A DNA stretch of 63,876 nucleotides, counting the filler, from Caldilineae bacterium (GTDB lineage: Bacteria; Chloroflexota; Anaerolineae; DTLA01), in the NCBI GenBank assembly GCA_037446815.1. It is 9 parts of 9 records of this genome, joined end to end, with 100 filler letters (N's around TTAATTAATTAA, not from the genome) between each part and the next. Parts side by side here need not be neighbours in the genome. Positions count along the whole stretch, not along the records: positions 28,735 to 35,744 come from JBBIHX010000153.1; 8 more parts are not named here. The stretch is one strand, 5' to 3'. This document shows, piece after piece, positions 30,001 to 33,000 of the stretch. The position numbers were made by a program. How positions within the stretch are numbered: position 1 is the stretch's first letter; each line of letters begins with the position of its first letter.

Positions 30001-33000
30001 TACAAGGGCACCCACCTGACGCACCCCAAGGTGCAAATCCACAAGGCGCGCGAGGTGCACGTGGAGGCCCGGGAGCGCATGCTGGTGCAGGCCGACGGCG
30101 AACTGGTGGGCCAAGCGCCAGCATCCTTCCGCATCGTGCCGCGCGTCCTGCGGGTCATCGCGTAACGCTGGGGCAGGCGTGAGAAGCGCGGCAGAGGGAG
30201 GACAACGATTGTGAAACAGGCGTGGAAGGGATTGTTGGGGTGGCGGTGGCCCATCCTGGGCGTCGTTGCAGGCGCGCTGCTCGCCAGCGTCCTGCGCTCG
30301 TTCGGCGTCGGCATCACGGTGGAGGAGGGCATCTTGTGGGGCGCGGTCGCGGGCCTCGTGGTGATGTACACGCCCTACTTCCTGCGCTCGGGCAAGATGG
30401 TTACCAAGCGTGAGAACAGAGTGGTCAACTTCGTCGTCGGCGTGTTCGTGTTCCTGGGCATCTCCGCCGTCATCATCACCATCTTCCTGGGCATCTTCTG
30501 GGTCCTGTCGCTGTTCATCCGATGAACCCCGCGCGGAGGCGTATGCGAGCACAAATGCTCCTATCCGGTGAACGGCCCGACGCCCACAGAGAAGCGATCG
30601 AGGAGGCGGGTAGCCGCCTGCCCGCGTCGGGCGAGGATCGCGCCCGCGCCTATGGCATGGTGGCCACGCCGCCCGAAATCGTGGAGTTCATGGTGCGCCT
30701 GTGCGAGCCCCTCCCCGCGGGGCCACTGGCAGTGCTGGAGCCGGCCTGTGGCGACGCCCCCTTTCTGCGCGCCTTTGCCGCGCGGTACGGGAGGCGCCAC
30801 GACCTCACAGGCGTGGACATCCACGCGGCAGAGACGCGCCTGGCGCAAGCCCAGATGCCCACAGCGCGCTTCCTGGATACCGACTACCTCCTTTGGGAAA
30901 CCGAGCAGCGGTTTGACATCATCATCGGCAACCCGCCCTATGGCATCATCGGCGACGAATCGCATTACCCGATTCACGCCCTTCGCGCACGCAAGGCCGT
31001 GTACAAGCGCCGCTTTGCCACCTGGTTCGGCAAGTACAACGTGTACGGGGCGTTCATCGAGCAATCCATTCGCCTTCTGAAGCCCGAAGGCAAGGCCGTG
31101 CTCGTGGTTCCCGCCACATGGCTTGTTCTAGACGATTTCGCGAGACTCCGCGCGTTCCTGGCGCACTCGGGCAAGGTAGCGGTCTACTACCTGGGCAAGG
31201 CATTCCCCAAGCGAAACGTGAGCGCCGTGGTCCTCGTGCTGACGAGAGGCGAACGGGGGCTGGAACTCTACGACGGCATGGAACGCGCCGTGGGCAAGCC
31301 GGAGTATCACGGCGAGATCATCCGATTCGAGACGCCCGACGCGCTGGCGTTTGAGCGCGGAGGCATCCCGCTCGGCGAGTGTTTTCGCGTTCACTTCGCG
31401 GCGCGAAGCCCAGAGATTCGGAAACACCCTTCGGTCGTTACCGAGCCCCGCGAGGGCTGCGTCCCTATCCTGACGGGTCGCAACCTGCAGCGTGGGCGGA
31501 TTGACTACGAGACGTGCTACTCGGGGCTGTGGATGCCGCGAGAAGATGCGCCGCAACTCCGGGCCTTCTACGCTTCGCCCCACATCGTCGTTGCCCATAC
31601 CAAAGGAACGCGCGTCGTCGCCGCTGTGGACCGACGTTGCTATCCCTGGCGTGAGGAGTTCCACCTGGTGCCGACGGTCGCCATCGCAGATTTGGATGCC
31701 GTCGTCGCACACCTGAATAGCGAGAGGATGCAACAGCACACACATAGCCTCTACCGAGACTTCGTGCCCCACCTCACCGCCACCATGTTGCGGCTGCTTC
31801 CGATACCGCAGGAGTTGATCTCTCTTCCCGTTGGTGCACAACTGGCTCTGTGGAGGGATAGCGCATGAACGAAAGTACATTGCAGCGGTTCGAGGAGTTT
31901 CTCGCTTCCATCCCGCTGGAGAAGTACCGCGAGGAATTGCTCACGGTGAAGACCGTGGAGACTGGTGGAGCGCGCAATCGTGGAGTGGATGCAGGCAGGA
32001 CGCCACGGCACCGTCGCTTGGGACGCCTTGCTGGGCCAGATTCGCGCCTGGGCGTCGGCTCGGTAAGCCACGGGCCGATCCTGTGCCCGCTCCATCGCGC
32101 CCGCGCCTACGCCCCGAACACGTCCCGCTTCTCCTGCTCGCGCGCCTCGTCGGACAGGGTCTCGTTGCCGCGGGCAACCTCGGCCCAGAAGGTCGCGTCG
32201 TAGTTGCGCGGGCGCACCTGAATCGGCATCGGCACGGCGTGCCCCACCACCAGCACCTCCTGGCGGAGTTTCAGGCTGGCCAGCGCATTGCGCAGGGCGC
32301 TGCGGTCGCTCACGCCCGTCAGCACCGCGTCAATGTCCCGCTCGTCGGCCAACTTGCCCGAGATGCGCGTGCCCAGTTGCGACAGCACCTCCGAGTCTAT
32401 CCCCGACGGGCGCTGATCTATCACCATCAACGTTACGTGGAACTTGCGCATCTCGCGAGCAATGGTGCCGAAGGTCGTCTGCGAGGCCATGGCCGGATTC
32501 AGGAACTTGTGCGCCTCTTCCAGCGTAATCAGCAGGGGCCGAGGGCGATCTTCGGACTTCTGCGACTGGTCCCACTTCTCCGTCTGCTCCACCCACCGCT
32601 GGCGCACCCGCCGCGTTACCAGGTTGGACACCAGCATGTAATCCATCATGGTGTTGTACTTGCCAAAGTGCAGGATGACGTGCTGGCCCCGCTCAAGGGT
32701 CAGGGTAATCTCATCCAGCAGGTTGGACCCCATCTCGGGGCGCACGTATTCCTTCCGCGACAGTTTCTTCAAATCGCGTTGGAGCGCCTGCACCGAGCCT
32801 TCGTGCGCGCCCGAGCGCTCGCAGAACGCGCTGAGAGCGTCGGAATCCATCTCTATCAGGGCGGAAAGCCATCTGTCGTGGTATTCGTCCACCAACAGGC
32901 CCATCATCGTGCTCGCCTTGGCCGTCAGCCCCAGTTCTTGCGCCATGAGGATGACATCCTCGGGCTCAATCTGATTCATCCCGATTTGTAGGACGCCGTC

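Follow-up and report, generated by a model that had tools for sequence, protein, structure and literature searches.

The window analysed here is a 63.9-kb stretch made of nine contigs from the genome of an uncultured Anaerolineae bacterium (G000; 3,187,165 bases in 265 contigs), joined by runs of N, in which contig C153 occupies positions 28735-35744. In GTDB, the genus of this organism is the entire family and order and comprises five genomes in total (G000-G004). On C153, we localized a TaqI-type restriction-modification locus with the following features, in window coordinates:

30522..31868, + strand: intact gene of an M.TaqI-type N6-adenine DNA methylase, 448 aa (Pfam, PADLOC and match to solved M.TaqI; TCGA specificity presumed)
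30598..30601, unstranded: TCGA site in the methylase gene (word count)
31057..31060, unstranded: TCGA site in the methylase gene, at ATC-GAG (Ile-Glu), kept in one alignment column across the five species
31327..31330, unstranded: TCGA site in the methylase gene, also present in G003 and G004
31865..31960, + strand: N-terminal piece of an endonuclease relic, equivalent to residues 4-35 of the enzyme that is intact in congeners (tblastn, RE_TaqI profile)
31890..31893, unstranded: TCGA site in the endonuclease relic, at TTC-GAG (word count)
31965..32060, + strand: C-terminal piece of the endonuclease relic, residues 238-269 (tblastn, other frame)

The survey's finding of an intact TaqI-type methylase followed by an internally deleted endonuclease on C153 was thus confirmed at positions 30522-32060. 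The methylase matches the Pfam families TaqI_C (8.4e-19), Eco57I (9.7e-17) and N6_Mtase, and the TaqI_C match spans profile positions 2-118 of 118, so that the TaqI-like C-terminal target-recognition domain is present. It also matches the PADLOC model MTase_II PDLC03293 (1.3e-158) and, over residues 39-431, the solved M.TaqI 2ibs_A (E 7e-139), to which the cofactor-binding motif VLEPACGDAPF and the NPPY motif IIGNPPYG of its translation align. From this homology, we infer that the enzyme methylates the adenine of TCGA. Its dN/dS is 0.12-0.20 against each of the four congeners, with dS values of 0.26-1.28 between species.

The ATG of the endonuclease relic overlaps the methylase stop. The N-terminal piece is 69-72% identical to the G001 and G004 enzymes (tblastn, E 1e-8 to 7e-10) and covers positions 1-28 of 229 of the RE_TaqI profile (PF09573) with 23.9-25.1 bits, under the cut-off of 26.1. 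The C-terminal piece (53-56% identity, E 2e-6 to 7e-6, tblastn) lies in frame +3 versus +2 for the N-terminal piece, and about 200 codons are deleted between the two. The lineage's system resembles that of Thermus aquaticus (M.TaqI, R.TaqI, TCGA) in a methylase that matches M.TaqI near full length and shares its motifs and TaqI_C domain, in congener endonucleases that match RE_TaqI, and in the position of the methylase upstream, with a stop/start overlap with the endonuclease. It differs in that the G000 endonuclease is an internally deleted, out-of-frame relic, and in that the system is chromosomal, with its upstream side syntenic across a deeply diverged genus and its specificity presumed from homology.

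A full-length R.TaqI-type endonuclease in one frame, lacking in G000, is present in G001 and G004, where RE_TaqI is intact (270-274 aa, profile positions 1-227 of 229). In G003, just the last 55 endonuclease residues remain and the methylase match contains a TGA, and in G002 a TaqI-type endonuclease was not found; these states agree with the two intact copies, one C-terminal remnant and one absence described earlier. The deletion boundaries differ among G000, G002 and G003. As to related populations, a 6,597-base contig from run X1 aligns without a gap across positions 30300-32500, differing at 99 places, and therefore shares the G000 deletion. A contig of 153 bases from runs X3 and X4 spans positions 31854-31960 and continues 46 letters beyond the deletion junction; read manually in the frame of the enzyme, these letters give QDLPRDLNPL, where the intact G001 enzyme has QDLPPALNPL. 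The methylase gene itself is a recombination mosaic, in which G001 groups with G000 inside the gene (0.86-0.94 identity) and with G004 in the flanks (0.87-0.97). When restriction-modification systems decay, the endonuclease is usually lost before the methylase. The locus follows this course to solitary methylases, with the endonuclease lost first, the methylase under purifying selection and, in G003, a stop in the methylase match. Unlike the usual case, three independent endonuclease deletions occurred in one small clade, and deleted and undeleted forms coexist among ~95%-identical populations; the loss is recent, repeated and polymorphic.

The presumed target of this methylase is scarce in the genome. 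TCGA occurs 216 times in G000, versus 10,132, 11,977 and 10,954 expected under base-composition, first-order Markov and maximal-order Markov null models, respectively (whole-genome observed/expected ratio, O/E, 0.02; 0.020), and AGCT occurs 277 times versus 10,132, 8,774 and 6,612 (O/E 0.03-0.04). The depletion of both words is seen with all three models and is independent of the choice among them. GTSAC (380 versus 3,974 expected, O/E 0.096) and CGTACG (109 versus 675, O/E 0.16) are depleted as well, and TTAA, missing from the survey's list, is a further strongly depleted word. Based on genes called in G000 (2,310), the depletion is less marked in non-called DNA (TCGA 102/2,008, 0.051; AGCT 98/1,336, 0.073) than in coding DNA (TCGA 114/8,924, 0.013; AGCT 178/5,258, 0.034). 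The earlier values of 215/10,914 for TCGA and 272/6,587 for AGCT were reproduced in our recount (216/~10,950 and 277/~6,600), as were the 6- to 11-fold depletion of GTSAC and CGTACG and the coding and intergenic ratios. Within the window, AGCT is absent (0 versus 137 expected) and TCGA occurs 8 times (229 expected), with half of these sites (4/8) in the restriction-modification locus; the methylase gene is the richest in TCGA genome-wide and alone among the called genes holds three sites.

The leftover TCGA and AGCT sites are uniform across contigs (chi2/df 1.28 and 1.17; at least one site in 128/265 and 134/265 contigs, respectively), which rules out a contaminant contig as the source of the pattern. 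That assembly, binning or library preparation produced it has, in our judgment, a practically negligible probability: we found no point in favor of such an artefact, the pattern recurs in five separately assembled genomes, sites are missing from contigs as long as 89 kb, the choice of codon pairs is altered around the sites, and foreign contigs in G002 are recognisable by their normal TCGA. Some of the remaining sites lie in the 46 tRNA/tmRNA genes, which contain 29/216 TCGA and 29/277 AGCT sites; the earlier count in such genes was 52. Site density is 2-10 times greater in low-GC 2-kb windows. The remaining sites may fall into three groups: sites that function holds in place, as in the T-loops and D-arms of tRNAs; sites that arrived with recently imported DNA (low-GC islands, an integrase gene); and sites created by young mutations.

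Codon choice changes sharply next to these words. The share of ATC among Ile codons drops from 83.6% before GG, GC or GT to 0.4% before GA (13/3,526), that of TTC among Phe codons from 80.8% to 0.6% (15/2,712), that of GTC among Val codons from 31.1% to 0.2% and that of CTC among Leu codons from 18.6% to 0.1%, in accordance with the enforcement at synonymous sites claimed before. For AGCT, the share of AAG among Lys codons falls from 85.7% to 1.6% before CT, and the Leu codon is TTG in 92.7% of cases following NAG versus 9.5% following other NNG codons. Avoidance of the words at synonymous codon pairs is seen in all three frames.

A mutational origin, in which deamination of methylated cytosines turns TCGA into TTGA/TCAA and AGCT into AGTT/AACT faster than new sites are gained, was considered. 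The excess of TCAA/TTGA genome-wide (O/E 1.3) is in its favor, as is the turnover of G000 AGCT sites, which are not conserved in 30/39 aligned site-genome pairs, with congeners most often showing AACT (7) or AGTT (6). Nevertheless, the C-to-T products are under-used before GA: GTT makes up 6.8% of Val codons there and GTG 86.2%, versus ~15% and ~79% expected after renormalising the context without GTC, while for Leu, CTT reaches 4.5% versus ~8.7% expected and the gain goes to CTG. Since the replacement codons carry no C-to-T signature, the purge is attributed to selection rather than deamination. Additionally, the transversion neighbour TCCA is enriched as much as TCAA, the sole TCGA methylase is an N6-adenine enzyme, a C5 methylase is absent (PF00145 matched in 0/5 genomes) and sites are retained in tRNA genes. 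Deamination is thus already disfavoured as the cause, and we regard it as very improbable.

Across the class, RE_TaqI was detected at E <= 1e-5 in 5/121 genomes, in addition to the G000 relic. TCGA O/E in the four lineages with RE_TaqI is 0.020-0.055 in the genus, 0.08 in G060, 0.08 in G015 and 0.03 in G037, versus 0.62-1.49 in the 21 sampled genomes of other genera without RE_TaqI; the ratios of relatives come from 2.6-223 kb sampled in each genome, and related genomes do not count as independent. In G014, a congener of G060, TCGA O/E is 0.07, and our searches found neither TaqI-type gene. Independent purges of AGCT occurred in other lineages (O/E 0.06 in G018, 0.19 in G008, 0.17 in G026 and 0.22 in G037), and foreign contigs binned into G002 have an AGCT O/E of 0.05 with normal TCGA. 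The purge is therefore not specific to the genus, as had been proposed: TCGA O/E is 0.08 or less in G060, G014, G015 and G037, and AGCT is also purged elsewhere. Searches of the open-licence PubMed Central and bioRxiv literature turned up no account of TCGA or AGCT being purged in Anaerolineae.

Cognate systems in the genus were identified for two of the words, TCGA and GTSAC. A Tsp45I-type endonuclease and methylase occupy one syntenic site, with the same flanks, in G004, G003 and G002, which supersedes the earlier claim that GTSAC had no enzyme. As in the Tsp45I system (GTSAC), the intact G004 endonuclease matches PF06300 over the full profile (260/260 positions, E 1.1e-115) and an N6_N4 methylase adjoins it. 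In contrast to that system, the endonuclease is frameshifted in G003 and carries 162 extra bases, in frame, in G002; the cassette was not found in G001, and in G000 neither the endonuclease nor the methylase was matched anywhere, the syntenic site (C140, about 4437-4530) being ~90 bases only. GTSAC O/E is 0.10-0.17 in G000, G001, G003 and G004 and is lowest in G000, although the G037 genome, where a Tsp45I pair is present, has a GTSAC O/E of 0.73. A complete TdeIII-type pair, whose specificity is presumably GGNCC, lies on G000 C259; GGWCC O/E in G000 is 0.56.

For AGCT, TTAA and CGTACG, searches of the genus with PF00145, PF02384, PF07669 and PF02086, and of G000 and G001 with PF01555, found no enzyme, and the survey's statement to that effect for AGCT and CGTACG holds for these profiles too. 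Family models of AluI-, MseI- and BsiWI-type enzymes are not known to us. The absence of a C5 methylase, which the survey had also brought up, stands; it is not decisive for AGCT, because archaea are recorded to have AGCT methylases that act on N4 of cytosine (PMC11033074). Several AGCT candidates were discarded. The TdeIII-type family of C259 is found in 18/121 class genomes and is absent from the AGCT-poor G018 and G008; the G003 C10 methylase with its 246-aa neighbour is DdeI-type, as judged by the source names of its relatives; the methylase-endonuclease pair common to the AGCT-poor G037 and G008 is BglII-type; and the 404-aa neighbour of a G018 methylase matches no family and is without a relative in G000. 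Richness in its own site was also rejected as a mark of a cognate gene: the AGCT-richest gene encodes a large serine recombinase and lies next to tRNA-Asp, and site richness therefore marks imported DNA. A family of ~780-aa proteins (G000 C35), in which an N6_N4 methylase motif is faintly recognisable, occurs in each of the five sampled AGCT-poor lineages and also in 8/21 genomes not depleted in AGCT, i.e., its distribution is weakly associated with the depletion.

Taken together, the pattern is probably an extreme, multi-site restriction-site avoidance caused by long-lived and now decaying restriction-modification systems. The phenomenon is of a known kind, of which this is an extreme case. 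The ancestor of the five-species lineage would have carried several vertically inherited chromosomal Type II systems, of the TaqI (TCGA), Tsp45I (GTSAC) and TdeIII types, with others for AGCT, TTAA and CGTACG presumed by analogy. Imperfect protection by methylation would pose a tiny self-cleavage risk at each recognition site, and such weak selection, exerted in a large population by systems resident for a very long time, could have removed almost all sites dispensable without protein change. The endonuclease genes would now be lost repeatedly and recently, with methylases lingering; in G000, the depletion would have outlasted the TaqI-type enzyme, now a relic, and the Tsp45I cassette, now gone. 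Because no enzyme was found for them, AGCT, TTAA and CGTACG are explained by analogy only.

Restriction-site avoidance in host genomes was reportedly described by Gelfand and Koonin in 1997 and by Rocha et al. in 2001. According to Rusinov et al. 2015 (PMC4687349), site avoidance increases with the lifespan of a system and persists after its loss; self-restriction by restriction-modification systems is described in a review (PMC12707154). TCGA (0.020) and GTSAC (0.096) in G000 both lie below O/E 0.78, the working threshold for avoidance given by Rusinov et al. (PMC4687349), with a system in the genome or in close relatives. The case resembles the site avoidance and "traces of lost R-M systems" described there in the depletion of short palindromes, the dependence on residence time and the sharing by relatives without the system. 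It differs in O/E values of 0.02-0.04 for two 4-mers versus the threshold of 0.78 (the lowest values of that study stand outside this comparison), in the involvement of at least five words at once and in a ~200-fold shift in codon-pair usage.

Several observations count against this avoidance model. Genomes without the endonuclease are purged no less than those having it (TCGA O/E 0.020 in G000, with the relic, versus 0.055 and 0.039 in G001 and G004, whose enzymes are intact), the lowest GTSAC value is that of G000, where the whole cassette is absent, and G014 and G037 break the correspondence between system and purge. The model also fails to predict a TCGA-rich methylase gene with one site kept in five species, and the association could be reversed, i.e., TCGA-poor genomes may take up TaqI-type systems more readily. 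If methylation itself carried a cost, by consuming cofactor or disturbing transcription, sites could be removed without cleavage; the purifying selection on the methylase in all species, even those without the endonuclease, fits this, and a very small per-site cost would suffice. This is a highly unlikely cause in view of G000, which lacks a GTSAC methylase yet has the lowest GTSAC, and of the three sites retained in the methylase gene. In other bacteria, moreover, purging of orphan-methylase sites is not known to be general.

Pressure from outside, to which we assign a small but appreciable probability, could also account for the missing relaxation in genomes now devoid of the endonuclease or of the entire cassette, for the purged G014, for the mosaic methylase gene and for the two endonuclease forms in closely similar populations. 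Systems for TCGA, AGCT and TTAA would be common in the community, DNA free of these words would survive transfer from strain to strain and resist invasion and addiction, and the resident systems would be recombining passengers; a study of hot-spring communities reports methylated TCGA, TTAA and AGCT motifs together (bioRxiv 10.64898/2026.06.24.734251). Nevertheless, the purge follows the cognate enzyme or its relics per lineage, not a shared habitat, and recent loss alone explains the missing relaxation. There is a similarly limited chance that site exclusion is now independent of the causal enzymes, either because restriction alleles cycle through loss and recombinational regain, with a stable purged genome and transient enzymes, or, for AGCT, because of an unrecognised, vertically inherited restriction activity of Anaerolineae, for which the C35 family is the lead.

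Under the preferred reading, i.e., avoidance driven by long-resident systems, the lineage bears on why hosts avoid the sites of restriction systems that they carry themselves and that should do them no harm, and on how long such systems last: the usual signals are weak (O/E 0.5-0.8), whereas the depletion here is ~50-fold. Fixed chromosomal positions can be assigned to at least three systems, and species and strains differ in whether the enzymes are intact, broken or gone, a useful natural experiment that permits measurement of the rate at which sites return after loss, of recombinational reversibility and of the strength of selection per site. The purge is also a composition signature that sets the DNA of the lineage apart from co-binned relatives, as was done for G002, and codon-pair statistics in such genomes are ruled by the history of defence, not by translation.

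The Caldilineae genome, a metagenome-assembled genome of 3.19 Mb (265 contigs, 65.4% G+C), contains 216 TCGA sites, against 10,132, 11,977 and 10,954 expected from base composition, a first-order Markov model and a maximal-order Markov model, respectively, and 277 AGCT sites, against 10,132, 8,774 and 6,612. When words containing TCGA or AGCT are left out, depletion is strongest in GTCAC/GTGAC (GTSAC; 380 seen, 3,974 expected) among 5-mers and in CGTACG (109 of 675) among 6-mers. Further 6-bp palindromes (AGCGCT, AGGCCT, ACGCGT, GGGCCC and GGCGCC) showed observed/expected ratios (O/E) of 0.31-0.47, and GATC one of 0.44. 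Residual TCGA and AGCT sites are evenly spread from contig to contig (chi2/df 1.2-1.3), with no contig at normal density. The purge is real, and our recount bears out the survey's finding that TCGA and AGCT are nearly eliminated and GTSAC and CGTACG depleted.

Based on our own calls of 2,310 genes, which cover 81.6% of the genome, the O/E within genes versus elsewhere was 0.013 versus 0.051 for TCGA and 0.034 versus 0.073 for AGCT. When GA comes next in these genes, ATC falls from 84% to 0.4%, TTC from 81% to 0.6%, GTC from 31% to 0.2% and CTC from 19% to 0.1%, confirming the earlier claim that the purge is enforced at synonymous sites. Likewise, AAG, CAG and GAG drop from 82-86% to 1.6-3.4% when CT follows, TTG makes up 92.7% of the leucine codons following NAG, and there are hardly any cases of CGA following NNT, TCG preceding A, AGC preceding T or GCT following NNA. 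TTT, ATT, GTT and CTT are reduced to 0.5-1.2% when AA comes next; therefore TTAA, a word not listed by the survey, is purged too, and its Markov figure (152 of 579) understates the depletion. The window, 63,876 bases in which nine contigs of the genome are joined, holds 26 TTAA, 24 from artificial linkers and only two real (1679 and 16781); its contig joins (7174-7185 and seven others) read N-run, TTAATTAATTAA, N-run.

The purge stems from selection rather than mutation bias. Simple deamination of methylated cytosines should make their C-to-T products commoner, but before GA the valine product GTT is down to 6.8%, with GTG at 86.2%, and the leucine product CTT to 4.5%. These products lose, so simple deamination is disfavoured. 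Moreover, the methylase, which presumably acts on TCGA given its homology to M.TaqI, is an adenine enzyme, and no C5 methylase was found in the five genomes of the genus searched. Functionally constrained sites also persist, with 29 TCGA and 29 AGCT in 46 tRNA/tmRNA genes. T-loops carry TTCGA in 23 cases versus TTCAA in 22. Residual-site density is 2-10 times higher in low-GC 2-kb windows, and the top AGCT-bearing gene is a large serine recombinase adjoining tRNA-Asp. Among residual sites alignable to sampled congener DNA, 14 of 33 site-genome pairs were conserved for TCGA and 9 of 39 for AGCT.

The survey correctly identified a decaying TaqI-type system, with a whole methylase and an internally deleted endonuclease, on contig C153 (window 28735-35744):

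30522-31868, + strand: M.TaqI-type methylase, 448 aa, with TaqI_C, Eco57I and N6_Mtase domains
96 bases from the ATG at 31865, + strand: N-terminal piece of the endonuclease relic (residues 4-35 by comparison with TaqI-type endonuclease)
96 bases after a four-base junction, + strand, other frame: C-terminal piece of the relic (residues 238-269)

The methylase matches the solved M.TaqI at E 7e-139 across residues 39-431, with both signature motifs there, and its stop is overlapped by the ATG at 31865. About 200 codons are lost between the two endonuclease pieces. The endonuclease is intact (270-274 aa) in the congeners G001 and G004; G002 lacks it and keeps an intact methylase, and G003 retains only the last 55 endonuclease residues, with a methylase match that ends at residue 389 and contains a TGA. 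Because their boundaries differ, the three endonuclease deletions are independent. Methylase dN/dS was 0.12-0.20 in all pairs, i.e., purifying selection, and synonymous divergence between species was 0.26-1.28, which indicates an old clade. Fitting less neatly with avoidance, the methylase gene alone among the 2,310 has three TCGA sites, of which the one at 31057 (ATC|GAG) is present in all five species. It has low GC3 (10th percentile) and a mosaic history, grouping G001 with our genome inside the gene and with G004 in the flanks; its TCGA richness is possibly due to import by recombination. Directly downstream lie a HerA-type ATPase (DUF87, 2.2e-28; 32107-33948, - strand) and a NurA nuclease (1.1e-23; 34390-35610, - strand), a flank shared with G002 and G003; the endonuclease-intact G001 and G004 have different DNA there.

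The genus, with five genomes, is the sole member of its GTDB family and order. Contrary to what had been proposed, the purge is not specific to it. Of the 121 class genomes sampled, five had RE_TaqI matches: G001, G004 and G060 with an intact enzyme, G015 with two pieces that overlap, and G037 with one piece close to where a contig starts. The methylase-then-endonuclease pair is also found in G060 and G015, at 56-63% identity to that of the genus, and these loci likewise bear TCGA (two and three sites, respectively). TCGA O/E was 0.08 in both G060 and G015, 0.07 in G014 (a congener of G060) and 0.03 in G037, against 0.62-1.49 in 21 enzyme-free genomes from other genera, an association of purge and enzyme across lineages. 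Within the genus it was 0.020 (subject genome, whole), 0.055 (G001), 0.039 (G004) and 0.039 (G003). The G002 sample gave 0.23, with 121 of its 132 sites on nine small contigs, which are a co-binned, more distant relative (64-74% identity to our genome in the eight that nucleotide BLAST aligned):

L053, L058, L060, L062, L063, L065, L067, L068, L070: co-binned relative's contigs in G002, GC about 0.60

This relative has normal TCGA (0.86), TTAA (1.1) and GTSAC (0.78), and an AGCT O/E of 0.05 (5 of 99 expected). AGCT was also low in G018 (0.06), G026 (0.17), G008 (0.19) and G037 (0.22); AGCT is therefore purged more widely than TCGA, and independently of it. CTAG was at 0.08-0.12 in samples of G060, G014 and G016, and other 4-bp palindromes, too, seem often to be strongly purged in the class.

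The survey's statement that AGCT, GTSAC and CGTACG lack an enzyme does not hold for GTSAC. A Tsp45I-type endonuclease (PF06300) is intact in G004 (E 1.1e-115), where an N6_N4 methylase comes after it. The G003 copy has a frameshift close to the start, and the G002 copy carries 162 extra in-frame bases; none was found in G001 or in our genome. The 2.2-2.4 kb cassette has the same flanking genes in G004, G003 and G002. On C140 of our genome these flanks stand about 90 bases apart, and neither endonuclease nor methylase has a match elsewhere in it, although its GTSAC O/E (0.096) is the lowest. For AGCT and CGTACG the statement stands: searches of the genus with PF00145, PF01555 (our genome and G001), PF02384, PF07669 and PF02086 found no cognate enzyme for them or for TTAA. 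On G004 C152 the Tsp45I-type endonuclease is listed twice with identical scores (6229-7005, + strand; 18728-19504, - strand), which reflects an inverted duplication or else an artefact of assembly. An island of G004 (locus L040 on C9; 16 kb, GC 0.578) has near-normal GTSAC (14) and few TCGA (3), with both endonucleases intact in that genome; it was seemingly acquired from a donor in which TCGA alone is purged.

Our genome also encodes a complete Type II pair on a 2.2-kb contig (C259:86-2168, locus L172), comprising a 409-aa N6_N4 methylase and a 295-aa TdeIII-type endonuclease (E 2.8e-53). This endonuclease family occurs in 18 of the 121 class genomes; the G003 copy is intact and the G004 copy fragmented. 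A 1,075-aa Type IIG restriction-methylase (C18:105-3329, locus L173; PADLOC PDLC03610, 6.7e-293; Type_ISP_C domain) has native codon usage and counterparts in G001, G002 and G004. G003 holds a DdeI-type pair. A faint match to the N6_N4 methylase motif occurs in a 937-aa ORF (C35:14626-17436, locus L174:5627-8437). Of the 121 class genomes, 59 encode relatives of its core (residues ~155-937); its first ~150 residues form a repeated segment that recurs on C55, C109, C33, C32, C57 and C8, in some copies with TAG stops.

Public contigs aligned to window 30300-32500 bear on when the endonuclease was lost. A 6,597-base contig of run X1 covers the whole interval with 99 differences and no gap (~95.5% identity) and carries the same deletion. 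Runs X3 and X4, which may be a single data set deposited twice, gave short contigs ~95% identical to our genome; one covers 31854-31960 and continues for 46 letters that, by our reading, encode QDLPRDLNPL in frame with the enzyme. The corresponding stretch of the intact G001 enzyme is QDLPPALNPL. Deleted and undeleted forms therefore coexist within roughly species-level divergence. This polymorphism is consistent with no return of sites in endonuclease-free genomes; by a rough, uncomputed reckoning, neutral divergence of only a few per cent since the loss would lift O/E above that observed. There is room for a less likely alternative, maintenance of the purge by outside pressure, since genomes without the enzymes show no relaxation and G014 is purged with neither TaqI-type gene.

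The selective agent removing sites is probably rare self-cleavage by resident systems; self-restriction is described in a review (PMC12707154). The systems were probably already present in the common ancestor, and the AGCT, TTAA and CGTACG purges may stem from other systems that have since been lost or escape recognition. N4-cytosine AGCT methylases are on a list for archaea (PMC11033074), and TCGA, TTAA and AGCT are reported together as methylated motifs of hot-spring communities (bioRxiv 10.64898/2026.06.24.734251). Site avoidance becomes stronger the longer a system lasts and lingers as a trace once it is lost (PMC4687349). Our finding is a very clean, extreme, multi-word case of a known phenomenon.
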